A stretch of DNA of 64,000 nucleotides from assembly GCA_964555135.1 (NCBI GenBank), contig CAZKRR010000001.1:1147-65146 (forward strand). Reading direction: 5' to 3'. This DNA is from an uncultured Nitrososphaeria archaeon. Its GTDB lineage: Archaea > Thermoproteota > Nitrososphaeria_A > Caldarchaeales > Wolframiiraptoraceae. Positions 29,232-48,393 of the stretch are shown here, piece after piece; within the stretch, counting starts at the first letter, position 1, and each line of letters begins with the position of its first letter. A program made the translations under genes and the position numbers. The notes beneath the pieces were generated by a model. It made no database searches and was not told the origin of the DNA. It saw only the letters and a program-made list of their open reading frames with translations.

Positions 29232-29666
29232 TCAACTCCACTCTTTTTCCACCTGCCTAGTTTCTGGTTTACGCAGTCTTATAAGAATTATCAGTAAAAT
29301 AATAAATGTAGCAGCTATTAATGCTAGCATGATGGAGTATGTTTCAAATGGAAGATACTCATGTATAGTGATTGTAATTATTTCAGTAAATGTTGATGAC
29401 GTTGTCTTTACGATTGTTATGCTTTGAGTTCGAAGGATTGTAGAAAACTCAATAGTAGTCTGAGTTACGGTAACGTATTCTCTAACAGTCTTGGTAGATG
29501 TCTCAGTAACCGGTTCACCAGTGTATATGTAGACTGTCTCAGTAATAGTCTCTTCTAGGCTGTTCTTATTAATCTTTTGCGTAGAGTTAGCTGTCGCTCC
29601 CATAATCAAGAAGAATAACAATAGGTAGAGAATAATTGTGGATGCTTTAACTTTCAATATCTTCAT
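29232..29666 (-). CDS. small Thr/Val-rich membrane-anchored protein (signal peptide plus C-terminal TM)
   Basis: N-terminal hydrophobic IILYLLLFFLIMGATA, T/V-rich repetitive beta-like core, C-terminal TM IMLALIAATFIILLIILI. Start overlaps the upstream large gene by 20 nt. Confidence 0.4.
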   Translation of the reverse strand: MKILKVKASTIILYLLLFFLIMGATANSTQKINKNSLEETITETVYIYTGEPVTETSTKTVREYVTVTQTTIEFSTILRTQSITIVKTTSSTFTEIITITIHEYLPFETYSIMLALIAATFIILLIILIRLRKPETRQVEKEWS

Positions 29667-32022: not shown

Positions 32023-32690
32023 AATCCTGGTATTTTCCTCACTTCAGTATCTAAGGCTCGATGAAAGTCTATCTGAGTATAGGAGAAAACTTCAAGTATT
32101 TTCTCTACTAGTATTTTCTTAACACTGTCCATATCAATCTTTCTTCCCAGGATTTTCTCCATCGAAGTCATAACGTCTGGGTCTAAACCACATGGATTAA
32201 TCAACTTAAAGTATTCTAAGTTTGTGTTAACATTCAATGCAAACCCATGGTAGGTTACCCACCATTTCAAAGCCAACCCTATAGACGCTATCTTCATATT
32301 ACCAACCCATACCCCTGGATAACGTTCTATCCTACCAGCTTCTATACTGAATTCTTTAAGAGTTCTTATCAAAGCTTCTTCAATGCTCCAAACAAAATCT
32401 CTTATCGAATTATTAACTAAGTTTAAATCTACAATGAAGTATCCTACAAGTTGTCCAGGTCCATGATACGTTGCTTCCCCACCCCTCTCCACATGATAGA
32501 CTGGGACACCCTCGACTCCTAGTTTAAATTCCTTCATTCTTCTTCCAAGAGTAACAACATGGGGATGCTCAAGTATTAGAAGTGTATCTGGGATCTTCCC
32601 GTTTATTCTTTCTTCAACTAGTGATAATTGTAGATTATGAGCTTTTTCATACTCTATTAATCCAAGGTCTAGTACCCGCAGTGTTCTCAA
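32019..32690 (-). CDS. lipB: octanoyltransferase / lipoyl(octanoyl) transferase LipB
   Basis: LDLGLIEYEKAHNLQ N-terminus, EHPHVVTLGR and HGPGQLVGY motifs of LipB. Confidence 0.7.
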   Translation of the reverse strand: MRTLRVLDLGLIEYEKAHNLQLSLVEERINGKIPDTLLILEHPHVVTLGRRMKEFKLGVEGVPVYHVERGGEATYHGPGQLVGYFIVDLNLVNNSIRDFVWSIEEALIRTLKEFSIEAGRIERYPGVWVGNMKIASIGLALKWWVTYHGFALNVNTNLEYFKLINPCGLDPDVMTSMEKILGRKIDMDSVKKILVEKILEVFSYTQIDFHRALDTEVRKIPGL

Positions 32691-32692
32691 GT

Positions 32693-34087: not shown

Positions 34088-34102
34088 ATTTTCAACCCCA
34101 CC

Positions 34103-34993
34103 CTACACATGTCTACCTATTAAAGTTCTCAGATAAAATTCTCCTGCGAGGTATGAGCTTCTCACAAGAGGGCCTGAGGCAACATATAAAAATCCCAAGG
34201 CTTCACCTCTTCTTTTAAGTTCTTCGAATATCTCAGGTGGAATATACTCTTTGACTGGGAGATGCCTCTTAGTAGGTCTAAGGTATTGTCCAAGTGTAAG
34301 AAAGTCTACTCCAATTCTCCTTAAATCGATCATTGACTGGATCACCTCCTCTACTGTTTCTCCTAAGCCAAGCATTATAGAAGATTTTGTGTATATTCTT
34401 GGGTTTAGTTCTTTTATGATCTTTAAAGTTTTTAGAGATTTCTTGTATCCAGCTCTAACATCTCTAACTAGTGGCGTAAGCCTCTCTACTGTCTCTATGT
34501 TGTGACCTATAACATCCGGCATTGAATCTACAATCGTTCTTAATGCTTTAACATTATTATTGAAGTCGGGGATAATCAATTCTATTAAAGTGTTTTTACT
34601 TCTCTTTCTTATCTCTCTTACAGTCTCAGCATATATTGATGCGCCACCATCCCTTAGGTCGTCCCTGGTTACCGAGGTTAGAACAACGTATCGTAACCCT
34701 AGTTCTTTGACTGCTTCAGCAACTCTCTTAGGCTCTTCTAAGTCTACTATACCTCCCGCTTTCCCAGACTTAACTGCACAGAATCTACATGACCTAGTAC
34801 ATGTATCTCCTAGTATCATTATCGTTGTATTGAGATGGCTCCAGCATTCAGAAATATTGGGGCATAAAGCCTCTTCACATACTGTATGTAGCCTATACTT
34901 TCTCATAATGGTGTTAACCATACTATATTCTTGGCTGGCTGGGAGCCTAACTCTAATCCAGCTTGGTTTACGTAGGTAATCCATCTCCGTCAT
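34103..34993 (-). CDS. lipA: lipoyl synthase LipA (radical SAM)
   Basis: Auxiliary cluster CEEALCPNISECW and radical-SAM CTRSCRFC motifs. Confidence 0.85.
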   Translation of the reverse strand: MTEMDYLRKPSWIRVRLPASQEYSMVNTIMRKYRLHTVCEEALCPNISECWSHLNTTIMILGDTCTRSCRFCAVKSGKAGGIVDLEEPKRVAEAVKELGLRYVVLTSVTRDDLRDGGASIYAETVREIRKRSKNTLIELIIPDFNNNVKALRTIVDSMPDVIGHNIETVERLTPLVRDVRAGYKKSLKTLKIIKELNPRIYTKSSIMLGLGETVEEVIQSMIDLRRIGVDFLTLGQYLRPTKRHLPVKEYIPPEIFEELKRRGEALGFLYVASGPLVRSSYLAGEFYLRTLIGRHV

Positions 34994-35119: not shown

Positions 35120-35677
35120 TTGATTGAGATTAGATGGCATGGAAGAGGTGGGCAGGGAGTAGTAACGGTTGGAGACATTCTTGCTCGGGCAATTATTCTA
35201 GAAGGAAAATATGCGCAACATTTCCCAGAATTTGGACCTGAGAGGTCTGGTGCACCTGTGAAAGCATTTACAAGAATAGCTGATGAACCTATAGAGATAC
35301 ATTCTGGTGTTTATAACCCTGATATAGTAGTGATCATTGACCAGGGCATGTCTCGAAATTTCAAGTTATATTCTGAAGGGTTAAAGGAGGATGGGATGTT
35401 ATTCTTGAATCTCGGAGATGACGTCTTAAGCATAGATAAGTCTACTCTACCTCTTGGAGTGAAGGTATATACTCTCAATGCCAAGAAGATTTCAGTGGAA
35501 GAAGCAGGCAGACCTATATTCAATGTCCCGATGCTGGGTGGTTTAGTTAGAGTATTAAGGATGCCTGGCTTAAATATTATTGAGGAAGTATTGAGTAAGA
35601 GATTTTCAGGAGAACTAGTTGAAGCGAATGTCAGAATTCTAAGGAGAGCATATAATGAGGTGAGGTTTATTGACTGA
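35120..35677 (+). CDS. 2-oxoacid:ferredoxin oxidoreductase, gamma subunit (cluster 1)
   Basis: IEIRWHGRGGQGVVT N-terminus is characteristic of POR/VOR gamma. TTG start. Confidence 0.75.
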   Translation: MIEIRWHGRGGQGVVTVGDILARAIILEGKYAQHFPEFGPERSGAPVKAFTRIADEPIEIHSGVYNPDIVVIIDQGMSRNFKLYSEGLKEDGMLFLNLGDDVLSIDKSTLPLGVKVYTLNAKKISVEEAGRPIFNVPMLGGLVRVLRMPGLNIIEEVLSKRFSGELVEANVRILRRAYNEVRFID

Positions 35678-35972
35678 GATAGATGTAAACAAGATAATTA
35701 AAGGTGAGTTTTCATGGAAGACTCTACCTCCAGCAGCAATGGTTAAGGTTCCTACATCCCTAGAATATAAGACTGGAGTTTGGAGAATTGAGAAACCCAT
35801 TATAGACCAGTCTAAATGTACAAAGTGTCTTCTCTGTTGGATATATTGTCCAGATATGGCTGTTAAAAGGATAGATGGTGGAAGTGTAGAGATAGATTAT
35901 GAATTCTGTAAAGGCTGTGGGATATGCGCTGAAGTCTGCCCGCCTAAAGCAATAAAGATGGTGGAGGAGTAA
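35670..35972 (+). CDS. 2-oxoacid:ferredoxin oxidoreductase, delta subunit (2x[4Fe-4S] ferredoxin)
   Basis: CTKCLLCWIYCPD and CKGCGICAEVCPP motifs. Confidence 0.75.
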   Translation: MTEIDVNKIIKGEFSWKTLPPAAMVKVPTSLEYKTGVWRIEKPIIDQSKCTKCLLCWIYCPDMAVKRIDGGSVEIDYEFCKGCGICAEVCPPKAIKMVEE

Positions 35973-35975
35973 GAT

Positions 35976-37169
35976 ATGAGTGAACTAAAACAGGTTAGAA
36001 AGATAGCTTTAACAGGCGATGAAGCAGTAGCATACGCTGCTAAACAAGCCGATGTTGATGTTATTGCAGCTTATCCAATAACGCCTCAGACAATAATAGT
36101 CGAGAGGCTAAGTAAATATGTCGCAGATGGTGAGTTAAACGCTGCCTTCATACAGGCTGAGAGTGAGCATTCAGCTATATCTATATGCCTCGGTGCTGCA
36201 CTTGCTGGAGCTAGAACTTTTACCTCAACTGCTAGTCAGGGGCTTGCATTGATGCATGAAGTACTACATATAGCTTCTTCTATGCGCGCACCCATAGTTA
36301 TGGCTATAGCTAATCGTGCGCTCAATTCTCCTCTAAACATACATTGCGACCATTCAGATGTAATGAATGCAAGAGATACTGGTTGGGTTCACTTATTCGC
36401 AAATAATGTTCAGCAAGCCTACGACCTTACATTAATGGCGTTTAAGATTGCTGAGGATCCTGAACTTCTTCTACCAGTCTCTGTAAACTTGGATGGATTC
36501 ATTTTAACACATAGTGTTGAACCTCTAGAAGTATTATCCGATGAAGATATACAACGGTACATCCCCCATATACCATACCCGTATAGAATAGATTTTGATA
36601 GACCACTAGCATATGGAGTGATGGCTCTACCAGATACATACATGGAATTTAGAAGACAATTATATGAAGTAATTGCCAAGGCTTATGAGGTATTTAGGGA
36701 TGCATCTGAATCTTTCTCAAATATCTCTGGAAGATTATACAACCTGATAACTCCATACTTTGTAGAAGATGCTGAGATCATAGTTGTAGCATTGGGGTCA
36801 ACCGTCGAGACTTTAAGATATATTGCTAGGAAATTTAGAGAAAGGAATGTCAAGATCGGTGTAGTTGGGTTAACCATGTATAGACCTTTCCCTGAGAAAG
36901 AAATTGCAAACACTTTGGCGAATGCTAAATGTGTGGCAGTAATGGATAGGGCATACTCATATGGAGGGGTTGGAGGGCCATTATATACAGATATACTCTC
37001 AACTCTATACAAAAATGGAATTAGAACGATGGTCGCAGACTTCGTCTACGGACTTGGTGGAAGAGACTTTAAGCTTATGGATGCTGAAGAGCTATTCAAT
37101 AAACTGGTCAAGTCGGTAGAGGTGGGCAGATTTGGCCAAGATATCTATTGGTGGGGGGTGAGAGAATAG
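35976..37169 (+). CDS. 2-oxoacid:ferredoxin oxidoreductase, alpha subunit
   Basis: GDEAVAYAAKQADVDVIAAYPITPQT N-terminus typical of POR alpha. Confidence 0.8.
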   Translation: MSELKQVRKIALTGDEAVAYAAKQADVDVIAAYPITPQTIIVERLSKYVADGELNAAFIQAESEHSAISICLGAALAGARTFTSTASQGLALMHEVLHIASSMRAPIVMAIANRALNSPLNIHCDHSDVMNARDTGWVHLFANNVQQAYDLTLMAFKIAEDPELLLPVSVNLDGFILTHSVEPLEVLSDEDIQRYIPHIPYPYRIDFDRPLAYGVMALPDTYMEFRRQLYEVIAKAYEVFRDASESFSNISGRLYNLITPYFVEDAEIIVVALGSTVETLRYIARKFRERNVKIGVVGLTMYRPFPEKEIANTLANAKCVAVMDRAYSYGGVGGPLYTDILSTLYKNGIRTMVADFVYGLGGRDFKLMDAEELFNKLVKSVEVGRFGQDIYWWGVRE

Positions 37170-37170
37170 T

Positions 37171-38118
37171 ATGGAGTCAGCCCAGAAATATTTTAGGACA
37201 ATAAGAGATGTACCTACTGAAGATTATTTTGCACCAGGTCATAGGCTATGTGCAGGATGCGGCCCTTCATTAGCTATGAAGCTTTCTATGAAAGCTATTA
37301 GGATGCCTACTTTAGTCGTTAATGCTACTGGATGCGTCGAGGTTTCAACATCTCTGTTTCCATATGTTAGCTGGAGGCTTCCATGGATTCACGTTGCATT
37401 TGAAAATACAGCTGCTGTTGCAAGTGGTATAAGTGAGGCCTTTAAAATACTAGAGAAGAAGGGACGTGGAAAGATGCATGACGTTATAGCTATAGCCGGG
37501 GATGGTGGAACATTCGATATAGGATTACAAGCACTTTCAGGAGCACTTGAAAGAAATCATAAAATGCTATACATATGCTATGATAACGAAGCCTACATGA
37601 ATACTGGGATACAGAGGTCTGGAGCAACACCTGTAGGTGCGGCGACAACGACTAGCCCGGCAGGTAAAGTAGTACCGGGAAAACAGGAGAGGAAGAAAGA
37701 CTTAATTGGTATAGTGGCGGCTCATAGAATACCTTATGCTGCAACCGCATCAATATCTCATCCACTCGATTTCATTAATAAGGTTAGGAAAGCCCTAGAA
37801 ATAGATGGGCCTACATTCATCCATGTCTTAACCCCCTGTACTCTGGGTTGGAGGTACCCATCATCTCAAACCATAAAGATAGCAAGATTAGCTGTTGAAA
37901 CAAGATACTTCCCAATAATCGAGGTAGAAAATGGTAGAGTTAGAATAAACATTAAAGTAACTAGACCTAAACCTCTTGAAGAATTCTTAGAGGCTCAAGG
38001 AAGATTCAGACACCTCTTTGAACCAGAAAATAAACACATTCTTGAGATACTTAAGCATCAGGTAGAAGAAAACTGGAATAGACTTTTAAAACTCGAGGAA
38101 ATAGGACTATACGCTTAA
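37171..38118 (+). CDS. 2-oxoacid:ferredoxin oxidoreductase, beta subunit (TPP-binding)
   Basis: CAGCG cysteine motif near the N-terminus, TPP motif GDGGTFDIG...YDNEAYMNTG, and cluster cysteines. Confidence 0.8.
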   Translation: MESAQKYFRTIRDVPTEDYFAPGHRLCAGCGPSLAMKLSMKAIRMPTLVVNATGCVEVSTSLFPYVSWRLPWIHVAFENTAAVASGISEAFKILEKKGRGKMHDVIAIAGDGGTFDIGLQALSGALERNHKMLYICYDNEAYMNTGIQRSGATPVGAATTTSPAGKVVPGKQERKKDLIGIVAAHRIPYAATASISHPLDFINKVRKALEIDGPTFIHVLTPCTLGWRYPSSQTIKIARLAVETRYFPIIEVENGRVRINIKVTRPKPLEEFLEAQGRFRHLFEPENKHILEILKHQVEENWNRLLKLEEIGLYA

Positions 38119-38154: not shown

Positions 38155-39204
38155 CTAGACTATGTTTACTCCCGTAGCAGCCTGAATCCTATGTAGGATA
38201 GAACTGGTTAACTTGTCTTCTAACCTAGACCTTATAACGCTTAAAGATATGAGTATATCGTTTATCCTTTTGATTACTCTTTGAGGATAAGGTATAGACT
38301 TAAATTCTATGCATAGCTTCTCTAAGTCTCTAGATGTTAAGGACTTGTTGTAGAATGCGTAAAGGATTGCTGATAATTGATTCAAGCTAGACTTATAGCA
38401 TGTATCATGTGAAGAGTAATTGTATAGGCATTTATTACAATTAGATGCTAGTAATTCCCTCATAGGTCCTCTACTACTTATTCTTACATGTTTTGCAACT
38501 CTAACATAGTTTTCCTTCTTTAATCTTGATAATGCTTTATACAGTGTATTAATACTAACTCCTTCTCTAATAAATCTCGTAGAGAGTTCTTCCACTGTTA
38601 ATTCACCATGAACACACAGGTAGTCAATGATTTTCTGCAGTAAGACTGGAGGTATCCTTGACAATTGCTGGTCTAGTTTTGACAAGAGTAGTTCCAAGAG
38701 CCTACTGTATTCTTGCGTAGAATTGATGTTAACCTTGCTTAAGCATTTGTCTAACTCGATATTGAATTCTTTGAATAATGTTAATTTAAGAGATTCTGGG
38801 TCAGATGTTTTCAGAAGTGAATTTATGAGGGCCCACAGAAGATAGACTTCTTCATTCTTCCATGAAATTCTAATAATCCATAAAAACTTTGTTAACGCAT
38901 TAATCATAGACAATCTGTCAATAATGTATAAATCTTGACGTAACTTCCTCACATAATTCTTATACGATAGTTCTTCAAGTAAACGCATGCTCCTACTATT
39001 CTTTGCTACTATTATAAGGTCTTGTCCATCGGTTTTCTCAATAATACATAATGGCGGCAAGTTGACGAAGTTATCTTCTGTAAATTCGCTCGGTGTAAAT
39101 TGTGTCATTAGACTGAGTAATTCATCGGTAGACATGGTCTCAGGAAAATATTGGAAAAAGGCAAATATTAGATTTTCCTTAAATAAAGCCACAACCACAT
39201 ACAT
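38155..39204 (-). CDS. hypothetical protein with a C-terminal winged-HTH-like segment; possible regulator between the two OFOR clusters
   Basis: C-terminal region YLCVHGELTVEELSTRFIREGVSINTLYKALSRLKKENYV resembles a wHTH recognition unit. The rest has no recognised motif. Confidence 0.35.
   Translation of the reverse strand: MYVVVALFKENLIFAFFQYFPETMSTDELLSLMTQFTPSEFTEDNFVNLPPLCIIEKTDGQDLIIVAKNSRSMRLLEELSYKNYVRKLRQDLYIIDRLSMINALTKFLWIIRISWKNEEVYLLWALINSLLKTSDPESLKLTLFKEFNIELDKCLSKVNINSTQEYSRLLELLLSKLDQQLSRIPPVLLQKIIDYLCVHGELTVEELSTRFIREGVSINTLYKALSRLKKENYVRVAKHVRISSRGPMRELLASNCNKCLYNYSSHDTCYKSSLNQLSAILYAFYNKSLTSRDLEKLCIEFKSIPYPQRVIKRINDILISLSVIRSRLEDKLTSSILHRIQAATGVNIV
39178..39190 (+). promoter_or_regulatory. 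TATA-like element (CTTAAATAAAG) about 45 nt upstream of the second OFOR operon start
   Basis: Read directly. A G-rich GGGGG stretch lies 8 nt before the ATG at 39233. Confidence 0.2.
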
Positions 39205-39232: not shown

Positions 39233-39517
39233 ATGTCTTTAAAACTTGTAAGAGAACCCATAAATAAGCATTTACAGAAAGTCCCTCTAGGAATTGTTCA
39301 CGTGATTCCTGAAAGATGCAAGGAATGTGGGTTCTGTATCGATTTATGCCCCAAAGACGTGCTAACGGTTGGTGAAGAGAGGAATATAAAAGGTTATCGA
39401 TGGCCAAAGATAGCAGACGGTAAAGCAATGGAATGTATTGCTTGCAAGATGTGTGAATGGATATGTCCTGAGTTCGCTATATTTGTAGTAGAAGTCGACA
39501 GGAGGGAATATGTCTAA
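39233..39517 (+). CDS. 2-oxoacid:ferredoxin oxidoreductase, delta subunit (cluster 2)
   Basis: CKECGFCIDLCPKD and CIACKMCEWICPE 4Fe-4S motifs. Confidence 0.75.
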   Translation: MSLKLVREPINKHLQKVPLGIVHVIPERCKECGFCIDLCPKDVLTVGEERNIKGYRWPKIADGKAMECIACKMCEWICPEFAIFVVEVDRREYV

Positions 39518-40662
39518 TGTCTGGAGAACTTAAACTGCTCAAACCTGGAACATACTTCATGATGGGAAACATTGCTTGTGCTGAAGCAGCATTAATAGCT
39601 GGATGTGAATTCTATGCAGGATACCCCATAACCCCATCCAATGAGATTGCCGAGCATATGAGTAGAAGAATGCCTCAGCTTGGAAGACACTTCATACAGA
39701 TGGAAGATGAGATAGGTAGTATAGTAGCAGTATGTGGAGCTTCTGCTGCAGGTGTAAAAGCTATGACCGCTACGTCTGGGCCTGGCTTCTCACTTATGAT
39801 GGAGACGATTGGCCTCTCAGCGATGCTCGAGCTTCCGTGTGTTATAGTTAATGTTCAGAGAGCTGGTCCAAGCACGGGTATTCCAACCTTTGTTGGGCAG
39901 GGTGATCTAATGCAGGCTAGATGGGGCTCACATGGAGATTATGAACTAGTAGTTTACGCACCCTCAACAGTTCAAGAATTTTTCGACCTAACAATAGAAG
40001 CTTTCAATACATCTGAATGGTTACGTATACCCGTAATAGTATTGTCCGATGAAGTGGTAGGGCACATGTATGGAAGACTGCAAGTTCCAGAGTACGATAA
40101 GATAAAAATTATTAACAGAAAACGATATAGCGGACCTAGAGAAGAATATCTTCCCTATAGTTCTGAAACACTCGTACCCCTTTTTGTAGCAGCTGGAGAT
40201 GGGTACAGAATACATATGACAGGCTTAACACATGATGAAAGAGGATATCCATCCCTGGAGATTGAAGACTCCCATAAGCTTATTGAGAGGCTTGTTATGA
40301 AAGTTAGGAAGAACGCTAAGAATTTGTGGAAATATGAAACATTGTATATAGATGATGCAGATGTTGTCGTTGTAACCTTTGGTATTACAGCGAGGTCTAC
40401 GGAGGAAGCAGTGAAGAGAGCGAGAAATGAAGGCTTAAAGGTTGGAATGATAAAATTGGTTACTCTATGGCCTTTCCCGGAAGACCCAGTCAGGGTTGCT
40501 AGCCAGTATGCTAGGAGAATGCTTGTAGCGGAGATCAACACGGGTCAGCTGATCCATCCTGTAAGAGAAGTTGCAGAATGCCCCGTAGCTGGAATAAATT
40601 ATCCGGTAGGTTACGTACCCCCACCTGAGTATATTCTTGATGGTATTAGAGCGGCGGTGTAG
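39517..40662 (+). CDS. 2-oxoacid:ferredoxin oxidoreductase, alpha subunit (cluster 2)
   Basis: GNIACAEAALIAGCEFYAGYPITPS N-terminus, as in KOR/VOR alpha. Confidence 0.8.
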   Translation: MSGELKLLKPGTYFMMGNIACAEAALIAGCEFYAGYPITPSNEIAEHMSRRMPQLGRHFIQMEDEIGSIVAVCGASAAGVKAMTATSGPGFSLMMETIGLSAMLELPCVIVNVQRAGPSTGIPTFVGQGDLMQARWGSHGDYELVVYAPSTVQEFFDLTIEAFNTSEWLRIPVIVLSDEVVGHMYGRLQVPEYDKIKIINRKRYSGPREEYLPYSSETLVPLFVAAGDGYRIHMTGLTHDERGYPSLEIEDSHKLIERLVMKVRKNAKNLWKYETLYIDDADVVVVTFGITARSTEEAVKRARNEGLKVGMIKLVTLWPFPEDPVRVASQYARRMLVAEINTGQLIHPVREVAECPVAGINYPVGYVPPPEYILDGIRAAV

Positions 40663-40667
40663 GATAC

Positions 40668-41531
40668 ATGAGTCAGAAACAAATTTTAAGGGAAAAGATA
40701 GCTGAGGAATCGCCGAGAGATGATCTGATAAGAAGAGAGAGGTTTCCCCACATATGGTGTCCAGGATGCGGTCTCGGAACCGTATTGAAATGTTACGTAG
40801 AAGCGATTGCAGCATCCAATATCCCTATAGATAAGCATGTAATTGTCTCGGGCATAGGTTGTACCGGTAGGATCGCTGGGTATGTTAGACTAGACTCCTA
40901 CCATGTAACTCATGGGAGACCGATAGCATTCGCCGAGGGAATGAAGATCGTTAGACCCGACCTTGAAGTAACAGTAATATCTGGAGATGGAGACCTAGTA
41001 ACCATAGGTGGAAACCACTTCATACATGCTGTCAGAAGAAATGTAGATATAAACGTCTTCCTAGTTAACAACTTTATATATGGTATGACTGGGAACCAAA
41101 TGGGGTCGACTACACCTTTAGGAGCTAAAAGCTCAACGAGCCCATACGGCTGCCCAGAATTTCCATTTAACTTGCCATTGTTGACAGCAGCTCTAGGAGC
41201 ACCATTTGTTGCGAGATGGACTACCCTGCATGTTCGACAACTTGCTGACGCTATGAAGAAAGCTTTACGAGTTAGAGGGTTCGCATTCATCGAGATAATA
41301 TCTCCATGCCCAGTCGGCTTCGGCTCCTATAACGATTTAAGAGAAGGTAGAGATTACATCAAGCTATTCCTAGAAAACTGTATAATAGACCATTCAGCTG
41401 ACCTAAACAGGGTAGGTATAACTCTCAGACCAGGTGAACCAATAATCTTAGGAAACTTCGTTGACCGTGAAGTACCTACATACCATGAGCTAGAATTGGA
41501 AGTTTTCAGGAAAGCGGGGTGGTTGAAGTGA
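40668..41531 (+). CDS. 2-oxoacid:ferredoxin oxidoreductase, beta subunit (cluster 2, TPP)
   Basis: WCPGCGLG motif and TPP region GDGDLVTIGGNHFIHA...NNFIYGMTG. Confidence 0.8.
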   Translation: MSQKQILREKIAEESPRDDLIRRERFPHIWCPGCGLGTVLKCYVEAIAASNIPIDKHVIVSGIGCTGRIAGYVRLDSYHVTHGRPIAFAEGMKIVRPDLEVTVISGDGDLVTIGGNHFIHAVRRNVDINVFLVNNFIYGMTGNQMGSTTPLGAKSSTSPYGCPEFPFNLPLLTAALGAPFVARWTTLHVRQLADAMKKALRVRGFAFIEIISPCPVGFGSYNDLREGRDYIKLFLENCIIDHSADLNRVGITLRPGEPIILGNFVDREVPTYHELELEVFRKAGWLK

Positions 41532-42061
41532 GATGGGATATAAGATTGGCAGGTTTCGGCGGTCAAGGAGTAATTAGGGCTGGAGAGATCTTGGGTAGAG
41601 CTGCTATTAAGCAGGGGCTTGACTCTGCTATGAGACCAATGTATGGACCTGAGAAGACTGGTGGATGGTCTCGGGCGGATGTAGTAATCTCTGATCAGCC
41701 TATAATATTTCCTCTAATAGTTAGACCTGATATTTTGGTTGCGATGTCTCAGGATGGCATGAATAGGGATGGCTCATCATTAAAGAAAGACGGGATGCTT
41801 CTCATAGATGGAGAATTAATAAAAGACATCAAATGCTATCCCAGTAAGATCTACTCAGTAGATGCTACGAGTATAGCGGATAACCTAGGTAGAAGGATAG
41901 TTGCAAACATAGTAATGCTCGGAGCTTTCGTTAAAGCATTCGGGATAGTTAATGAAGACATACTCTTACAGACAATTATTGAAACCTTCCCTAGAGCGAC
42001 CGAATTGAATAAGACAGCCTTCAAGCTTGGTGTGGAAAATGTGAAGGAGGTGAAGATATAG
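41519..42061 (+). CDS. 2-oxoacid:ferredoxin oxidoreductase, gamma subunit (cluster 2)
   Basis: VRWDIRLAGFGGQGVI gamma-subunit N-terminus. Its stop codon directly abuts the ATG of the HdrA-like gene. Confidence 0.75.
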   Translation: MVEVRWDIRLAGFGGQGVIRAGEILGRAAIKQGLDSAMRPMYGPEKTGGWSRADVVISDQPIIFPLIVRPDILVAMSQDGMNRDGSSLKKDGMLLIDGELIKDIKCYPSKIYSVDATSIADNLGRRIVANIVMLGAFVKAFGIVNEDILLQTIIETFPRATELNKTAFKLGVENVKEVKI

Positions 42062-45000
42062 ATGTCTGATGAAGTCTTAGTTATAGGCGGAGGGATAGCT
42101 GGAATACAATGCTCTCTAGATCTTGCTAATGCTGGCGTAAAGGTAGTACTTGTTGAGAAGACCCCTACGATAGGGGGGAAGATGGCGATACTTGATAAGA
42201 ATTTCCCAACGCTAGACTGTTCAATCTGCATCGAAGCGCCGAAGATGAGCGAAGTAGGTAAGCATCCAAACATAGAGTTGGTAACTCTCGCAGAAGTAGT
42301 AAATGTCGAGAAGGACGGTGAAGACTATGTAGTTGAGATATACCAGAAGCCCAGGTATGTAACAGATGAATGTAGTAGATGCGGTCTCTGCGTAGATGCA
42401 TGTCCAGTCTTACTAAAGAATGAATTCGATTATGGCATGGCTGCTAGAAAAGCAATATACACACCTATCCCACAATCTGAGCCAGGAGCGTACGTTATAG
42501 ATATTGATAACTGTTTGAATAAGCCTCCAAACTATCTACCATGCGATAGATGCGTACAAGTCTGTGGTCCTAAATGTATAGATTTCTTCATGAAACCTAA
42601 GATAATAAAGAAGAGGGTTAAAGCGATAGTTGTTGCTACGGGATTTGAAGTTTTCGACGTAACTAGGATACCGGACTACTCTTATGGTCTACACCCAGAT
42701 ATCTTAACTTCCATGGAATATGAGAGACTACTACAATCAACCGGTCCAAGTGGTGGAGAAATAATTAAACCAAGTAATGGTCATCATCCTGAAAACATAT
42801 GCTTCATCTTATGCGTTGGCTCAAGAGACCCTAGATATAACAAGTATTGTTCAAGATTCTGCTGCATGTATACAATTAAAGAAGCTGTCCAGACGGTTGA
42901 ACACGGGATAAAGAACGTAGACATCCTGTACATGGATATTAGAGCATACGGTAAAGGTTTTGACGGTTTCTATAAGAGAGCTAAAGATGAAGGTGTAAGA
43001 TTCATAAAAGGGAGAGCTGCGAGAGTGATCCCCAATGGAGATAAACTGAAGGTGAGATATGAAAACATTGCAGAAGAGAGAATGGAAGAAAAAGAATACG
43101 ATATGGTCGTACTAGCAGCAGCGGCTGAACCTCCACCCGACCTAGCCAAGCTTGCAAACATATTAGGTATTGAGTTAGATGAAGACGGATTCATTAAGAC
43201 AAGACCATGGCATGGAAAAATGATAGCTACTACTATGGAAGGAATCTTCGTATGTGGGAGCGCCTCAGGTCCAAAAGACATAGCAGATAGCGTGACAGAA
43301 GCAGGTGCAGCAGCTTCTGCAGCTCTTGAATACGTAAAGAAGAAGACTTGGCCTAAACTAGAATTTGAAGAGACGATACCTGCGGAAGGAGAGACTAGGG
43401 TAGGTGTATTCATATGTCATTGTGGAACGAACATCGCAGGTGTTGCGGATGTAAAGTGGTTAGCTCAGGAAGCTGCAAAGATACCTGGAGTAGTTCACTC
43501 AGAAGATCTTAGATTCGCATGCGCAGGCGTATACACAAAATATATCGAGCAGGTGATTAAGGAGAAGAATATTAATAGGCTTGTTGTAGCTGCATGCTCC
43601 CCGAGAACCCATCTACCCGTTTTTGCTGGAGCAGCCATGAGGGCAGGCTTAAACCCGTACCTAGTCGAAATGGCGAATATACGTAATCTCGATACATGGG
43701 TTCACGCAGGCTACCCAAAGGAGGCTACGGAGAAAGCATTAGATATGATCAGGATGGCTGTAGCTAAAGCTAAGCTACTCAAGCCTCTATACGTTGTAAA
43801 GCTTCCAGTAACTAGGAGAGCATTAGTAATCGGCGGCGGCGTTGCAGGAATGGCTGCGGCAGCAAGCTTAGCTCGCCAAGGCTTTGAAACATACCTAGTT
43901 GAGAAGGAAGGCCAGTTAGGTGGGCTTGTAAGACATCTTGACGTTATAGCCCCTGAGGGGATAAGAGCTCAAGATTTACTGTATGAGATGGAGAGAGAAG
44001 TATATAGTTCAGGTGTGAAGGTTATCCTGAATGCAAAGGTTGAATCGGTAAGCGGGTATATTGGAAACTTTATTGCAAACCTATCGAGTGGAGAGAAGCT
44101 TGAGGTCGGAGCAATCATTATGGCGACCGGCGCGAAAGTCTATCAACCGCAGGGGGTCTTCCAGACAAATGGTGGGAACATAATAACCTCCTTCGACTTA
44201 GAGCAGATATTCAAGAATAACAATGACCTCAATGCTAAGAATGTAGTCTTCATTAGCTGCGTAGGTTCTAGATACGATTCAAAAGGCTGCTCAAGATTCT
44301 GCTGTCAAGTAATGATAAAGCAGGCAATCAGGCTTAGAGAGATGGGGAAGAATGTATTCATACTCTACAAAGATATCAGGACCTACAGTAGGAAGGCTGA
44401 AGAACTATACGAGAAAGCAAGAGCACTAGGCGTCAGATTCGTAAAATACCACCCTGAGAAGAAACCTGAAGAAGCTATAAAAATTGAGAATGGGTTAGTG
44501 TACGTGAAAGATGAACTACTAGGAGAAGAAATCGGTATACCTGCAGACCTAGTAGTATTAAATGTAGGTCTTGTTCCAAACGATGAGATAAATCCAATCG
44601 TTGAACAATTAAAACTATCTAGAGATGAAGCAGGCTTCCTTCTCGAACTCCACCCGAAGCTTGGACCAGTTGAGTCAATGGTTGGAGGAGTATTCCTTGC
44701 AGGAACATCTCAGAACCCGAAAGATGTTAGAGAAGCAATCTCACAAGGCTTAGCTGCAGCAGCTAAAGCAGCAGCACTACTAGCGAAAGACACTATTGAT
44801 AAGGAGCCGCTAGTACCTAGGATAAACTATGATAAATGTACATACTGTCAGAGATGCGCTCAAGTATGTACTTTCTCAGCTCTTAGAGGGGAGCTTAGAA
44901 AGAGTTTGGAATTGATTAGTGCATTATGCCAGGGATGTGGAAACTGTTCAGCTGAATGTATGGTTGGAGCTATTGAAGCTCCAGGATTTACCGATGAACA

Positions 45001-45469
45001 GATTATTGCACAGATCGATGCAGCGTTAGAAGATAGACCAGACGAGAAAGCGATAGTCTTTACGTGTAATTGGTGCTCATACGCAGGTGCAGACCAAGCA
45101 GGTATAGAGAAGCTCCAGTATCCACCAAGCTCTAGAGTGATAAGAACAATGTGTTCAGCTAGGGTCTCGCAGAAGCTCATATTAAGAGCATTCGAGAAGG
45201 GTGCCGCGGTAGTTGCAGTTACTGGTTGCTGGCCACAAGACTGCCACTACAATTACGCAAACCTAAACACGGAGAGGAGGGTTAAGCAAATGAAGAAGAT
45301 ATTGGAAGCTAGGGGGATCAATCCTGAAAGATTAATACTACACTGGAATAGCGCAGCAGAAAGCAAGAGGTGGGCAGCTAAAATGAAAGAGATAGATGAA
45401 TTAATCAAGAAGATCCCAAGAGAAGAAATAATTGAATCTATCCAAAAACTTGGAGGTGGAAGAAAGTGA
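42062..45469 (+). CDS. heterodisulfide reductase subunit A-like flavoprotein: two tandem HdrA modules plus a C-terminal MvhD ([2Fe-2S]) domain; 1135 aa
   Basis: Module 1 has FAD motif VLVIGGGIAGI, ferredoxin motifs CSRCGLCVDACP and CDRCVQVCGPKC, and HdrA signature CVGSRD...CSRFCC. Module 2 has ALVIGGGVAGMAAA (nt about 43827), CVGSRYDSKGCSRFCC, CTYCQRCAQVC and CQGCGNCSAEC. C-terminal VFTCNWCSYAGADQAG...GCWPQDCHY matches MvhD (nt about 45040-45469). Confidence 0.8.
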   Translation: MSDEVLVIGGGIAGIQCSLDLANAGVKVVLVEKTPTIGGKMAILDKNFPTLDCSICIEAPKMSEVGKHPNIELVTLAEVVNVEKDGEDYVVEIYQKPRYVTDECSRCGLCVDACPVLLKNEFDYGMAARKAIYTPIPQSEPGAYVIDIDNCLNKPPNYLPCDRCVQVCGPKCIDFFMKPKIIKKRVKAIVVATGFEVFDVTRIPDYSYGLHPDILTSMEYERLLQSTGPSGGEIIKPSNGHHPENICFILCVGSRDPRYNKYCSRFCCMYTIKEAVQTVEHGIKNVDILYMDIRAYGKGFDGFYKRAKDEGVRFIKGRAARVIPNGDKLKVRYENIAEERMEEKEYDMVVLAAAAEPPPDLAKLANILGIELDEDGFIKTRPWHGKMIATTMEGIFVCGSASGPKDIADSVTEAGAAASAALEYVKKKTWPKLEFEETIPAEGETRVGVFICHCGTNIAGVADVKWLAQEAAKIPGVVHSEDLRFACAGVYTKYIEQVIKEKNINRLVVAACSPRTHLPVFAGAAMRAGLNPYLVEMANIRNLDTWVHAGYPKEATEKALDMIRMAVAKAKLLKPLYVVKLPVTRRALVIGGGVAGMAAAASLARQGFETYLVEKEGQLGGLVRHLDVIAPEGIRAQDLLYEMEREVYSSGVKVILNAKVESVSGYIGNFIANLSSGEKLEVGAIIMATGAKVYQPQGVFQTNGGNIITSFDLEQIFKNNNDLNAKNVVFISCVGSRYDSKGCSRFCCQVMIKQAIRLREMGKNVFILYKDIRTYSRKAEELYEKARALGVRFVKYHPEKKPEEAIKIENGLVYVKDELLGEEIGIPADLVVLNVGLVPNDEINPIVEQLKLSRDEAGFLLELHPKLGPVESMVGGVFLAGTSQNPKDVREAISQGLAAAAKAAALLAKDTIDKEPLVPRINYDKCTYCQRCAQVCTFSALRGELRKSLELISALCQGCGNCSAECMVGAIEAPGFTDEQIIAQIDAALEDRPDEKAIVFTCNWCSYAGADQAGIEKLQYPPSSRVIRTMCSARVSQKLILRAFEKGAAVVAVTGCWPQDCHYNYANLNTERRVKQMKKILEARGINPERLILHWNSAAESKRWAAKMKEIDELIKKIPREEIIESIQKLGGGRK

Positions 45470-46620
45470 TAAAGGCTAAACTAGTAGATGTAGAATTAAT
45501 TGAGAAACTAGCACAATTAACTTCTGGAGCCGCAGACTACTGCTACCAATGTGGAACATGTACTGGTTCATGCCCATTCAATCTACTAAACCCCCAAACC
45601 GTTAATCCTAGGAAGATTGTTAGAAGCGCTCAGCTCGGGCTAATATATGATGATGGAAGTTTATGGTATTGCTCAACATGCGGTCTCTGTGAAGCTAAAT
45701 GTCCATGGTCCGTTAAGATCACCGAAGTAGTTAGAGGATATAGACAGCTTGCTACAGAGGAGAGAAAGCTACCTCACAAATTCGAAGAAATACTCTGGAT
45801 GATATATGAGGATGGAACAGCTTTTCCAGGCTCAAGTATAGAGAGAGCAGCATGGACTGAAGGTTTAAACATTAAGGACGCCTCAAAACAGAAAGTTAAA
45901 GTACTACTTTATGTCGGATGCGCAGTCTCATTTGATAAAAGATTACAGAAAATAGCTAGATCTCTTGCAAGCGTACTTTCAACAGCAGGAGTAGACTTTG
46001 GAATACTCGGTAAAGAAGAAAGATGCTGCGGAGACTTAGTATACAATATTGGTGAAGAAGCTTTCCTAGAAGAGCTTGCAGTCCAGAATATTGAGAGATT
46101 CAATAAGACTGGAGCTGAGGCTATAATAACGATCTCCCCCCATTCTGCGCATATGTTTAAGAAAGTATATCCCAGATATGGATTAAAGATACTCGCCTCC
46201 CACTACATAGAGTTCCTCCACGATTTGATAGAGAGGGAGAGAATTAAAATGGATAAAGCTGTGGATGATGAAGTAACAGTGCATGATCCATGCTACCTTG
46301 GGAGACATCTAAAGATATATGAGCAACCTAGGAAGATACTGTCAAGCATACCTGGATTAAAGATTTTAGAGATGAATGAAGCTAAGGAAAATGCAGTGTG
46401 CTGTGGAAGTGGTGGTGGAAGACACTTTTTAGACATTCACGGTGATAGACTATCTCACTACAGGGTCATGCAGGCAGCTCAGACAGGCGCTAAAACATTA
46501 GTAGCTCCATGCCCATTCTGTATCCAAAACTTTGAAGATAGCGTGAAAACCAAGAAACTAAGCTTAAACATTAAAGATGTCGTAGAATTGGTTAATCAAT
46601 CATTGAGGAGGAGTGCATGA
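45466..46620 (+). CDS. HdrC-HdrB fusion (HdrD/GlpC-like CCG-domain iron-sulfur protein), no TM segment
   Basis: N-terminal 2x[4Fe-4S] motifs CYQCGTCTGSCPF and CSTCGLCEAKCPW (HdrC-like), then two cysteine-rich CCG domains (CCGDLV; CCGSGGG). No hydrophobic helix. Confidence 0.75.
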   Translation: MIKAKLVDVELIEKLAQLTSGAADYCYQCGTCTGSCPFNLLNPQTVNPRKIVRSAQLGLIYDDGSLWYCSTCGLCEAKCPWSVKITEVVRGYRQLATEERKLPHKFEEILWMIYEDGTAFPGSSIERAAWTEGLNIKDASKQKVKVLLYVGCAVSFDKRLQKIARSLASVLSTAGVDFGILGKEERCCGDLVYNIGEEAFLEELAVQNIERFNKTGAEAIITISPHSAHMFKKVYPRYGLKILASHYIEFLHDLIERERIKMDKAVDDEVTVHDPCYLGRHLKIYEQPRKILSSIPGLKILEMNEAKENAVCCGSGGGRHFLDIHGDRLSHYRVMQAAQTGAKTLVAPCPFCIQNFEDSVKTKKLSLNIKDVVELVNQSLRRSA

Positions 46621-47605
46621 AATGGATCCAGAATACAGGAGCGTCTGGGTATTCCTAGAGAGACGTAGAGAAGAAATAATCGAATCTTCACTCGAAGTTC
46701 TGGGGAAAGCCCGTGAACTAGCAGATAGATACGGAGATAAAGTAGCAGGAATATTAATGGGGGCTGGAAACCTAGATAGACTTGCTGAAGCAGCTATAAC
46801 TTATGGGGCAGACATAGTCTACACTATTCAAGACGAGTTACTTCGAGATTATTCAACAATACCGTATTCTGAAGCATTGTCTAGGATGATCACAATGTAT
46901 AAACCCAACATAATCCTTTATCCTGCTACTAGGAATGGTAGAGACCTTGCTGGTAGAATATCTGCAAAATTAAACCTGGGACTATCAGCTAATACTGTCT
47001 GGCTAGACATAGTTGGAGATGGAGTATTACTAGCGGGCGTACCAGGATTCGGAGGGGGGATAATGGCTGTAACTAAGTGTCTAACTAAGCCTCAGATGGC
47101 AACTGTACGGCCTGGTGCATTCCCTAAGCCTCAGCCAAACCTTACAAGAACTGGGAGGATAGAAAGAATAGATATTGGTAAGCTCCCAGAACCTCCAATC
47201 AAGGCCATTGAAAGAGTATTCTACACAGTTGAAGATATTAGTAAAGCTGAAGCAATCATAATAGCTGGAATAGGCATAAGAGAAAATATCGAAGTAGTTA
47301 AGAAGCTTTCAGAGAAATTGAATTGGGCCTTCGGAGCAACCAGACCTCTCTCAGATGAAGGTCTAGTCCCCAGAGACATATTTGTCGGAGCAACTGGGAA
47401 AACGGTGAGACCAAAAATAGCATTGATAGTTGGTGCAAGTGGAGCAGCCCACTTTATCTCTGGAGTTGCAGGAGCTGAAAAGATAATCTCTATTAACATA
47501 GACCCTGAAGCACCTATCCATTCATACTCCGACTACTCTATAGTCGGGGATGCATACAAGATTATCCCAAAACTATTAGAGAAATTGGAGGCTGAGACCA
47601 AATGA
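46613..47605 (+). CDS. etfA: electron transfer flavoprotein, alpha subunit (EtfA/FixB-like)
   Basis: C-terminal FAD-binding region PKIALIVGASGAAHFISGVAGAEKIISINIDPEAPI is diagnostic for EtfA. Confidence 0.75.
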   Translation: MHEMDPEYRSVWVFLERRREEIIESSLEVLGKARELADRYGDKVAGILMGAGNLDRLAEAAITYGADIVYTIQDELLRDYSTIPYSEALSRMITMYKPNIILYPATRNGRDLAGRISAKLNLGLSANTVWLDIVGDGVLLAGVPGFGGGIMAVTKCLTKPQMATVRPGAFPKPQPNLTRTGRIERIDIGKLPEPPIKAIERVFYTVEDISKAEAIIIAGIGIRENIEVVKKLSEKLNWAFGATRPLSDEGLVPRDIFVGATGKTVRPKIALIVGASGAAHFISGVAGAEKIISINIDPEAPIHSYSDYSIVGDAYKIIPKLLEKLEAETK

Positions 47606-48393
47606 TGCATATAATTGTGTGTATGAAGATCACTCCAAAATCTGAGCAAGTTAGACTAGACCCTAATACTAAGACTATAATTAGAGAAGGAGTAGAAAAT
47701 GAGATAAACCCGGCTGACAAGAATGCCTTGGAAGCAGCATTACAATTGAAAGATAAGCATGGCTGTAAAGTAACAGTCCTAGGCATGGGGCCACCGATCT
47801 GGGAGTCATACATGAAGCTTGCGGTATCCATGGGAGCGGATGATGCTATTCTCGTATCCGATAGAGCATTCGCAGGCGCAGACACCCTTGCTACGAGCAG
47901 GACACTGGCTGCAGCTATAAGGAAGATCGGAGAATATCACTTAATATTTTGTGGAGAAGAGTCAAGCGATGCTGGAACGGGTCATGTACCTCCAAGTATT
48001 GCAGAATTCCTCAACATACCTCAAATAACATTCGTAAACCACATCGAAATCATAGATGGAAGAATCAGAGCTAGAAGAGTATTAGAAGGTGCTTATGAAG
48101 TCTTAGAATGCACCCCCCCAGTCCTGCTCTCTATCGAATATGGTTGTAATACGCCTAGATTTCCAGACTTTAGGAGGAAGAGATGGGTAGACAAGGAGTT
48201 CAAGCTTAGGGTCTGGGATATAAAAGATCTTGAATTAAATGAGGAGGAGGTAGGATTAAAGGGCAGTAGAAGCATCGTGGAAGAGCTTAGAGAGATGGGG
48301 CTAGGTGAAAGAGCTAGACAAAAGATAACTGGTACCGAAGATGAAATCGTAGCTCAAATACTAAACATTATACGTCCATACATCAAGAAGTAA
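47602..48393 (+). CDS. etfB: electron transfer flavoprotein, beta subunit (EtfB/FixA-like)
   Basis: N-terminal MHIIVCMKITPKSEQVRLD (EtfB VCxKxVPD pattern); 263 aa. Confidence 0.75.
   Translation: MMHIIVCMKITPKSEQVRLDPNTKTIIREGVENEINPADKNALEAALQLKDKHGCKVTVLGMGPPIWESYMKLAVSMGADDAILVSDRAFAGADTLATSRTLAAAIRKIGEYHLIFCGEESSDAGTGHVPPSIAEFLNIPQITFVNHIEIIDGRIRARRVLEGAYEVLECTPPVLLSIEYGCNTPRFPDFRRKRWVDKEFKLRVWDIKDLELNEEEVGLKGSRSIVEELREMGLGERARQKITGTEDEIVAQILNIIRPYIKK

Follow-up and report, generated by a model that had tools for sequence, protein, structure and literature searches.

A single-chain double HdrA with a fused MvhD domain, encoded between a KOR-like oxidoreductase and an electron-transferring flavoprotein in an uncultured archaeon

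We analysed a window of 64,000 nucleotides (nt) from an uncultured Nitrososphaeria archaeon (Caldarchaeales; Wolframiiraptoraceae), taken from contig CAZKRR010000001.1 of assembly GCA_964555135.1, and describe here an open reading frame (ORF) that lies at positions 42062..45469 on the plus strand. The genome that the source matches best, at 97% identity, is that of Candidatus Geocrenenecus arthurdayi. The ORF runs uninterrupted through 1,135 codons, and its product of 1,135 amino acids (aa) joins two HdrA-type modules and an MvhD domain in one polypeptide. The ATG is immediately 3' of the stop codon of the upstream gene, which encodes the gamma subunit of a 2-oxoacid:ferredoxin oxidoreductase (OFOR), and the 3' end of the ORF runs 4 nt into the next gene, which starts with GTG and encodes an HdrD-like iron-sulfur protein. 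These genes belong to a run of eight, all on the plus strand with ends overlapping or abutting, which as judged from its sequence is a translationally coupled cassette for a KOR-like OFOR (δαβγ), the double HdrA with MvhD, the HdrD-like protein and both subunits of an electron-transferring flavoprotein (ETF), EtfA and EtfB. The fused double HdrA-MvhD is a type of protein that is already known, and its cassette context is the less-known part. No published account of the eight-gene cassette was found in a full-text literature search, which did not extend to all relevant reviews, and neither Hdr nor Etf is mentioned in the searched literature on the source lineage.

The ORF is real and not an artefact of assembly. 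The idea that assembly or annotation had joined two neighbouring hdrA genes has the unusual length as its sole point in favour, and its chance is negligible. The frame is open throughout, the exact protein sequence is present on three independent contigs, and a search of 5.8 billion proteins, evaluated as clusters, returned more than 120 clusters of 1,122-1,166 aa with the same colinear architecture, at 97-100% query coverage and 55-98% identity, with a few listed clusters of other lengths. Taken together, these observations refute the merger. The source names of the clusters span many phyla, and include Thaumarchaeota/Aigarchaeota, Candidatus Caldarchaeum, Calditenuaceae, Nitrososphaerota, Thermoplasmata, Armatimonadota, Rokubacteria, Elusimicrobia, Dehalococcoidia and Anaerolinea. 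A first-pass annotation of the ORF would have been overturned by a stop or frameshift between the halves; there is none, and equivalents of this length, well above 1,000 aa, occur in both archaea and bacteria. Among the best 150 representatives of clusters at 50% identity, 93 are 940-1,200 aa long and most of these are colinear with query residues 1-990. A fused MvhD domain is found in only 7 of the 94 representatives of this size, the query counted.

PDB HdrA chains match the ORF product at E=7e-186 (phmmer), and the NCBIfam HdrA2 model NF040770 reaches 1137.9 bits against a cutoff of 1100, as the sum of three stretches. We mapped the domains with phmmer against the PDB chains, using the 659-aa methanogen HdrA 8rvu_a, and by a three-way alignment in which M. 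marburgensis HdrA was set beside the two modules. Residues 2-364 align with HdrA 151-511, which comprises the domain that binds flavin adenine dinucleotide (FAD), the inserted ferredoxin domain and the FPTLDCSxC motif. They fall in module 1 (aa 1-430; 42062..43351, plus strand, as for all features of the chain), a thioredoxin-reductase-like FAD domain with GGGIAG at aa 9-14, a Cys53-x-x-Cys56 pair, a [4Fe-4S] site at C251/C263/C267/C268, and residues E221 and K273. The inserted ferredoxin domain (aa ~97-180; 42350..42601), with C104/107/110/114 and C151/161/164/168 for two [4Fe-4S] clusters, is present in module 1 only. Residues 443-615 align with HdrA 10-182 and lead from an HdrA N-terminal-type cluster domain (aa 443-580; 43388..43801; C452, C454, C487 and C512; aligned with HdrA 10-150), which sits between the two FAD domains, into the second GGGVAG. 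The second thioredoxin-reductase-like FAD domain, in module 2 (aa 583-912; 43808..44797), has GGGVAG at aa 591-596, a [4Fe-4S] site at C733/743/747/748, and residues E714 and K753. Residues 815-991 align with HdrA 480-655 and contain the end of the FAD domain and a C-terminal ferredoxin domain for two [4Fe-4S] clusters (aa 917-991; 44810..45034; Cys motifs at aa 926-966; aligned with HdrA 582-655). The chain finishes with the MvhD domain (aa 995-1118; 45044..45415), whose [2Fe-2S] site comprises Cys 1002, 1005, 1031, 1056 and 1061 with the motif C1002-N-W-C1005; it is matched by PDB MvhD/VhuD chains at E 8e-33 to 6e-21 and by Pfam FlpD (PF02662) at E=1.8e-43 over aa 998-1118, model positions 2-122 of 123. 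Other Pfam matches were to Pyr_redox_2/FAD Rossmann families at about aa 5-40 and at aa 587-896, and to 4Fe-4S dicluster families at aa 103-168 and aa 920-972.

Several features read from the sequence in the first-pass annotation were recovered at their places: the Rossmann motif at aa 9 and a second near aa 590, the cluster signature CxGSRD/Y...CSRFCC in each half, and the MvhD-type domain at the C-terminus. Its description of two full repeats of the HdrA architecture did not hold, as the repeat spans only the thioredoxin-reductase-like FAD domain. There is a single FPTLDCSxC (Cys197) motif, at aa 48-56 in module 1, and a single N-terminal cluster domain, which precedes FAD domain 2. In the three-way alignment module 2 has a gap of ~85 residues in place of the inserted ferredoxin and lacks the Cys197-type CxxC, with IAPEGIRAQD opposite the FPTLDCSICI of module 1. 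The two halves do each contain a region of 2x4 Cys, as had been claimed, but these are not equivalent, one being the inserted and the other the C-terminal ferredoxin domain. With two FAD domains and a single copy of each accessory domain, the chain is therefore not two complete HdrAs. Neither half holds all four domains of an HdrA protomer; the set is divided between them, with the Cys197-type Cys and the N-terminal domain distributed in a complementary manner and their ligands invariant. From this arrangement the chain is predicted to be a single-chain pseudo-heterodimer of HdrA, similar to type II HdrA and BamE. The earlier proposal that one chain mimics the core of an HdrA dimer fits well with these complementary losses, which are also seen in fused or tandem HdrAs (PMC9012536) and in BamE.

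Such proteins have been described before. Fused HdrAs of more than 1,000 aa with complementary loss of Cys197 and the N-terminal domain occur in anaerobic methanotrophic archaea (ANME), where they were read as "their own heterodimeric partners" (PMC9012536). Another study assigns these to type II HdrA, concludes that they arose by fusion of diverged HdrAs, and suggests two bifurcation reactions as possible (PMC12054007). Double-HdrA fusions are frequent in TACK phyla, with a C-terminal MvhD in 17 of 54 (PMC11237513).

Across 120 aligned homologues, archaeal and bacterial, 35 Cys show no or almost no variation: C53 and C56, eight in the inserted ferredoxin domain, C251/263/267/268, C452/454/487/512, C733/743/747/748, eight in the C-terminal ferredoxin domain and five in MvhD. 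The FAD motifs (GxGxxG, GG and GD-type) are conserved in both modules, and GxGxxG and the cluster signature are kept in 119-120 of the 120. The residues named above for module 1 do not vary in any of the 120. Loss of FAD- or cluster-binding residues, which would have marked one module as a degenerate duplicate, was thus not observed in either half. The predicted cofactors are two FAD, seven [4Fe-4S] clusters and one [2Fe-2S] cluster. Homologues from Candidatus Caldarchaeum (L017:8001-9800, also L020; P0096, of 1,602 aa) contain an intein of ~525 aa with a homing-endonuclease domain, positioned directly before the second Cys of the Cys197-type CxxC (...FPTMDCSI|CMPGDTD...FTVSN|CIEAPK). Given this exact position, the equivalent of Cys56 would be the +1 splice nucleophile. 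Inteins typically occupy the most conserved functional sites.

The halves are clearly homologous to each other (BLASTP E=9e-28, 31% identity over 237 aa). The FAD domain of module 1 is 45% identical to methanogen HdrA and that of module 2 35-43%, against 31% between the modules. Both halves are thus nearer to canonical HdrA than they are to each other, which points to diverged HdrAs that became fused, and a recent tandem duplication can be set aside. An AlphaFold2 model built from a 69-sequence alignment had a mean predicted local distance difference test score (pLDDT) of 86.6 and a predicted template modelling score (pTM) of 0.88; the pTM would suggest that the whole chain forms one defined body. 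The sole internal segment with a pLDDT below 50 is a loop at about aa 49-51, just ahead of Cys53. Foldseek placed methanogen HdrA chains at the top of its PDB matches, with target-normalised TM scores of 0.74-0.76 (full chains) and 0.92 (partial chains), and returned no single-chain double HdrA from this PDB set, in which the BamE structure was not included.

Relatives of other layouts were also noted. Many of the representatives P0134-P0191 are 1,470-1,530 aa long, with the C-terminal two-thirds matching query residues ~160-990 and ~630 extra residues at the N-terminus; these may be HdrAs of the Moorella type with an NAD(P)H-binding GltD insertion (PMC9430772). An Asgard-like contig with genes for Arf/Roc-type small GTPases (L024:9001-21465) encodes two giant HdrAs in tandem, of 1,154 aa with MvhD and of 1,026 aa, followed downstream by several further HdrA/MvhD-like genes. 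The relative there is 41% identical to the query, and neither OFOR nor Etf is encoded.

BamE, from the class II benzoyl-CoA reductase (BCRII) of G. metallireducens, was solved by cryo-electron microscopy as an HdrA dimer fused into one chain, which holds two FAD and seven [4Fe-4S] clusters; its bifurcating FAD is in the first thioredoxin-reductase-like domain, TrxR1 (Lys280, Cys59-Cys62), and the second FAD is non-bifurcating (Gln768) (bioRxiv 10.64898/2026.04.10.717634). This raises the question of whether the two flavins of our protein are equivalent. We took the Lys/Glu pair at the flavin N5 in M. thermolithotrophicus HdrA (K409/E356) as the signature of bifurcation. The corresponding pair in module 1, K273/E221, is invariant in 120 of 120 relatives. 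In module 2 both equivalents, K753 and E714, are present in this protein and E714 is kept in 112 of the 120, but position 753 is Lys in only 6 of these close relatives, with G, S, N, H, T or Y in most. Across the wider representatives of 940-1,200 aa (93 plus the query) Lys is found at 273 in 89 of 94 and at 753 in 57 of 94. Conservation of the residues around a bifurcating FAD in both halves therefore stands for module 1 and falls short for module 2 at K753, where the variation would suggest that constraint on the second flavin signature is relaxed. The codon for K753 is at window positions 44318-44320, and among cassette-type homologues Lys at this position is limited to the query clade (the query and P0001-P0005, down to 63% identity). 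It may be a lineage-specific retention or a regain.

The first-pass annotation of two complete HdrA modules could be extended to two bifurcation modules, each independently active, which would give two flavin-based bifurcations per chain. The FAD motifs and the four-Cys cluster in both halves agree with this, as does the Lys/Glu signature, which here is present twice (K273/E221 and K753/E714), and two reactions were suggested for type II HdrA (PMC12054007). Nevertheless we consider two such modules improbable. The N-terminal domain, the inserted ferredoxin, the C-terminal ferredoxin and the Cys197-type pair are each single, K753 is not conserved in the family, and in the solved BamE the second FAD lies away from the branch point. 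The domain complement and the variable K753 would place only flavin 1 at the electron branch point. A single-chain bifurcating unit, as first proposed, is plausible, but its modules are incomplete and its flavin sites are not equivalent.

The cassette opens with the OFOR delta gene (39233..39517, plus strand, as for the whole cassette), encoding a ferredoxin-like protein of 94 aa with two [4Fe-4S] sites (Pfam Fer4 families). Its best NCBIfam matches, OGOR_delta and OorD, are both under cutoff, and its eight Cys are invariant in 21 orthologues. The alpha subunit (39517..40662; Pfam POR_N and PFOR_II) is KOR/OGOR-like: it passes the generic NCBIfam model NF006412 (509 bits; cutoff 411) but not the 2-oxoglutarate synthase model (373 bits; cutoff 579). 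In the PDB it comes closest to 1yd7_A, the top match, which is the alpha subunit of a generic 2-keto acid:ferredoxin oxidoreductase, and to 8ys5_A, the alpha subunit of a 2-oxoglutarate synthase; 8ys5 and 6n2n are both of OGOR type. The beta subunit (40668..41531; Pfam TPP_enzyme_C), which would bind thiamine pyrophosphate, has its best NCBIfam matches among 2-oxoglutarate/2-oxoacid ferredoxin oxidoreductase beta subunits. The gamma subunit (41519..42061; Pfam POR; NCBIfam TIGR02175, 95 bits against a cutoff of 81) has the stop codon that abuts the HdrA start.

Downstream of the giant HdrA is the gene for the HdrD-like protein (45466..46620), an HdrC and HdrB fusion that is a predicted soluble Fe-S protein with no transmembrane segment (Pfam Fer4_8 and two CCG domains). 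It has the 2x4 Cys of HdrC, for two [4Fe-4S] clusters, and a complete second CCG motif (C276, C312, C313, C349 and C352). The first CCG is degenerate, with C152, C187 and C188 followed by SPHS, giving three Cys; most orthologues have SPHC and four. The best PDB match is mycobacterial EtfD (9ojn_A, E=1.9e-46). The cassette closes with EtfA (46613..47605; Pfam ETF and ETF_alpha), the large ETF subunit, and EtfB (47602..48393; Pfam ETF), the small one, both apparently of the bifurcating-Etf lineage. They match the bifurcating Etfs 5OL2, CarDE, LctBC, 4KPU and 7KOE far better than non-bifurcating ones: EtfA at 1e-50 to 1e-59 against 1e-24 or weaker, and EtfB (5ol2_B, CarD, LctB, 4kpu_B and 7koe_A) at 1e-38 to 1e-49 against 1e-13 to 1e-20. 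A motif of the DGDTAQVGP type in EtfB is a mark of bifurcating Etfs, which are of the group 2 type and have a second FAD and an NADH site. Here the motif reads SDAGTGHVPP, and in several orthologues SDGATAQVPP or SDSGTAQVPP. No acyl-CoA dehydrogenase, hydrogenase, FrhB or NuoEF-type partner was found within the window.

These partners bear on whether the system could be a canonical heterodisulfide reductase of the HdrABC or HdrA2B2C2 type, acting on CoM-S-S-CoB or another disulfide. The HdrA2 model does score above its cutoff, relatives carry the JGI label 'heterodisulfide reductase subunit A', and the HdrD-like neighbour has CCG domains. However, the score is a sum over three stretches of a duplicated architecture, and without the CxxC in the first CCG (SPHS, or SPHC in most orthologues) the two five-Cys non-cubane clusters of HdrB are impossible. 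The closest solved relative of the HdrD-like protein is the ETF-oxidising EtfD, and the hosts are not methanogens (Caldarchaeales, Armatimonadota, Rokubacteria and others). We therefore regard disulfide reduction of this kind as very unlikely, with the degenerate first CCG motif as the reason for rejecting the canonical enzyme. That motif, with the resemblance to EtfD and BamD, favours coupling to ETF over disulfide reduction.

We then asked how widely the cassette is conserved, using tblastn on 20 fetched loci from Nitrososphaerota, one Armatimonadota bacterium and one Thermoplasmatota archaeon. The eight genes are in identical order at 17 of the 20 (L002-L004, L006-L008 and L010-L020), and the exceptions are due to the flanks, with L005 stopping before EtfB and L001 and L009 too short for the whole cassette. 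L011 stops within EtfB. It is present further in Rokubacteria, Anaerolinea and Elusimicrobiota, the last with a permuted order of OFOR subunits. Its carriers are Caldarchaeales, other Nitrososphaerota and, beyond this lineage, five other phyla (Thermoplasmatota, Armatimonadota, Rokubacteria, Chloroflexota and Elusimicrobiota). The genes on either side are different in each case, so that the eight genes move between domains as one block, and from these comparisons inter-domain transfer appears to have spread the cassette. None of the eight products has a convincing transmembrane segment, and all are predicted to be soluble.

At one locus (L025:6069-17085) we observed a variant, with a 994-aa double HdrA, 48% identical to ours, immediately downstream of OFOR delta-alpha-beta-gamma. 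MvhD is separate (137 aa), and the genes that follow encode a CCG-only protein, an HdrA-MvhD of 819 aa and an HdrD-like protein; Etf is absent. As the variant keeps the OFOR but not the Etf, the link between OFOR and double HdrA would be the most persistent part. In the Thermoplasmatota archaeon (L004:16396-18446) the genes after the cassette encode a Rieske protein and a fused Etf of 577 aa, with ETF and ETF_alpha in one chain. In the Armatimonadota bacterium (L003:1-6078) it adjoins a nitrous-oxide reductase cluster (nosZ-like propeller/cupredoxin, NosD and ABC transporter) and lies near a molybdopterin oxidoreductase/NrfD set, which would suggest that at least some carriers respire and are not strict fermenters.

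Two solved systems indicate how electrons may move through such a chain. In Hdr-Vhu-Fwd a mobile arm, made up of the N-terminal domain cluster, the C-terminal region and VhuD, delivers electrons to the FAD and alternately takes the low-potential electron toward the inserted ferredoxin and the polyferredoxin docked on it (PMC13518236). [quoted passage not shown]

By analogy, we hypothesise that the giant HdrA is the flavin-based bifurcating or confurcating core of a soluble OFOR-Hdr-ETF complex, a reading that we favour and hold to be fairly probable. The eight cassette products, going by their synteny, would form one soluble complex around it. The module 1 flavin, with K273/E221 and Cys53/56, would be the only bifurcating or confurcating flavin, and would be served by a mobile arm from module 2 consisting of the N-terminal domain cluster, the C-terminal ferredoxin and MvhD. 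FAD domain 2, which keeps its flavin and cluster, may act mainly as a structural 'partner protomer'. On the low-potential branch, electrons would pass between the bifurcating FAD, the N-terminal domain cluster, the inserted ferredoxin and OFOR delta, ending at the couple of 2-oxoacid with acyl-CoA and CO2 at ~-500 mV; OFOR delta would dock on the inserted ferredoxin domain as FmdF/VhuB or BamC do in the solved complexes. On the high-potential branch they would pass between the bifurcating FAD, the FAD domain 1 cluster, the HdrD-like protein and ETF. The system may run as bifurcation that drives reductive carboxylation, with ETF taking the high-potential electron, or as confurcation of electrons derived from the 2-oxoacid and from ETF. 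OFORs work at about -500 mV and ETF at about 0 mV, and with these as terminals a mid-potential third partner is required, which the cassette does not contain unless NADH reacts at Etf. Mid-potential electrons may enter or leave by the C-terminal ferredoxin and MvhD, to a partner encoded outside the cassette, or alternatively enter as NADH at an Etf of the bifurcating lineage.

In a rival explanation the HdrA, the HdrD-like protein and Etf are a non-bifurcating wire that drains OFOR electrons to ETF or NAD+ without coupling, like the extra subunit of an NAD-dependent phenylglyoxylate:acceptor oxidoreductase. There is no obvious third redox partner in the cassette. It is established thermodynamics that oxidation of 2-oxoacids with NAD+ or ETF is exergonic and makes coupling unnecessary; subunits of NADH-dependent phenylglyoxylate dehydrogenase are among the weaker NCBIfam matches of the OFOR, and non-bifurcating HdrA homologues are on record. 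What tells against the wire is the strict conservation of the bifurcation apparatus (K273/E221, Cys53/56, the N-terminal domain cluster, both ferredoxin domains and MvhD), as a costly architecture of seven clusters would be superfluous for it. We think it unlikely, though less so than two active modules.

Several points weigh against a bifurcating core as we have drawn it. All contacts between subunits come from gene order and analogy, the pseudo-dimer contacts of Cys53/56 with the N-terminal domain cluster are presumed, and the cassette has no gene for a mid-potential partner. The OFOR could equally dock on MvhD as an input module rather than on the inserted ferredoxin domain. Given its resemblance to bifurcating Etfs, EtfAB might be the site of NADH entry and not a passive high-potential sink. 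As K753 and E714 are both present in this protein an active second flavin is possible, and with three Cys in the first CCG in the clade of the window the clusters predicted for the HdrD-like protein are tentative.

It is conceivable, and we propose it tentatively, that the cassette encodes a previously undescribed soluble supercomplex in which an HdrA-type bifurcating flavin is hard-wired to a KOR-like OFOR at low potential and, through the degenerate HdrD-like protein, to an Etf of bifurcating lineage at high potential. If so, this would be a third machine that combines HdrA with a low-potential enzyme, besides Hdr-Fmd/Fwd and BCRII, and might hold two bifurcating flavins. It would allow non-methanogenic archaea and bacteria to drive reductive carboxylation with NADH or another mid-potential donor, or to confurcate in the reverse direction, and would so give them a route for coupling the very low-potential 2-oxoacid/acyl-CoA couple to electrons at the level of ETF. 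This bears on the ways in which such organisms generate or get rid of low-potential electrons, and on the modularity of the HdrA core. A double-HdrA backbone of this kind also occurs with MetVF (41% identity) and, by published description, with BamBC. The protein by itself adds little, as complementary double HdrAs with or without MvhD are catalogued and BamE is solved.

Outside the cassette, a divergent 349-aa ORF on the minus strand (38155-39204), separated from it by a 28-nt spacer, has no Pfam or NCBIfam match. Its C-terminal stretch is winged helix-turn-helix-like, an unannotated 333-aa ORF has the same position at L002, and it may be a regulator of the cassette. Just upstream on the plus strand (35120-38118) is a second OFOR, of POR type, with gamma followed by PorA-like and PorB-like genes (PorB 414 bits, cutoff 405); a similar set adjoins the cassette at L002 as well. 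Beyond this, on the minus strand, is a lipoate-related run (29647-34993) with a lipoyl synthase (34103-34993), a dihydrolipoamide-dehydrogenase-like flavoprotein (32693-34087), an LplA/B catalytic domain (32019-32690) and, after the LplA/B gene, a 791-aa ORF without Pfam match (29647-32022). We considered a functional tie to the lipoate genes (32019-34993) in the style of sHdr-LbpA and rejected it, as this neighbourhood is missing at L002-L004 and L021-L023. Not being conserved beside the cassette elsewhere, these genes are probably unrelated.

Among known systems, type II HdrA and HdrA3-HdrA4 of ANME and methanogens likewise have two thioredoxin-reductase-like domains per chain with complementary N-terminal domain and Cys197, and a subset of the double HdrAs of TACK and Asgard archaea shares the C-terminal MvhD fusion (PMC11237513). 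The type II and HdrA3-HdrA4 gene clusters differ in containing HdrBC, FdhB/FrhB and a molybdopterin protein and in serving CoM/CoB metabolism, whereas here the partners are OFOR, HdrD-like protein and EtfAB in non-methanogens. The ANME fusions also have the opposite order of modules, with the N-terminal domain module first, by the description in PMC9012536. The MetVF-associated HdrA of Sporomusa ovata and Moorella thermoacetica follows the domain order of our protein: an extra N-terminal thioredoxin-reductase-like domain, then the N-terminal domain, a thioredoxin-reductase-like domain without inserted ferredoxin, and the C-terminal ferredoxin. P0152 (1,016 aa), from an hdrC-hdrB-hdrA-mvhD-metV-metF cluster, is 41% identical to and colinear with query residues 4-992. 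In that system, however, the partners are HdrBC and MetVF, MvhD is separate, and the S. ovata HdrA is described as having no inserted ferredoxin domain.

The HdrA of methanogens (MvhAGD-HdrABC and Hdr-Fmd/Fwd; 5ODC, 7BKB, 8RVU; PMC13518236) shares all the domain types and cluster ligands, the MvhD adaptor and the K409/E356 signature, with 45% identity between its M. marburgensis FAD domain and module 1. It forms a symmetric dimer of two identical 650-aa chains with two active sites, in contrast to one chain with one complete set here, and its acceptor is CoM-S-S-CoB via HdrBC. In Hdr-Fmd/Fwd a CO2-converting enzyme is wired directly to the low-potential branch, as we propose for the OFOR. The HdrD-like protein resembles EtfD (9OJN) and the EMO-type ETF:quinone oxidoreductases, with an HdrC-like part for two [4Fe-4S] clusters and two CCG domains with one complete non-cubane site, and with ETF as functional partner, here a presumed one. 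EtfD is an electron acceptor for ETF and has a linear [3Fe-4S] and one non-cubane [4Fe-4S] cluster. It is membrane-anchored and reduces menaquinone, whereas the HdrD-like protein is predicted to be soluble and is encoded beside HdrA, and different Cys are missing from its degenerate CCG.

BamE offers a close parallel, in a comparison that rests on its published description and not on direct alignment of sequence or structure. The low-potential partner genes there are BamBC and here a KOR-like OFOR, and no input module of the BamGHI type is encoded here. MvhD is fused in our protein, whereas BamF is separate, longer and contains selenocysteine, and the second flavin site has Lys in place of Gln768. 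Both are fused HdrA dimers with the same domain order and the same CxxC (Cys59/62; Cys53/56 here) and Lys (Lys280; K273 here) in TrxR1; both have seven [4Fe-4S] clusters and two FAD, as predicted here; and both are accompanied by an HdrD-like partner and an ETF, which in the Bam system is BamOP.

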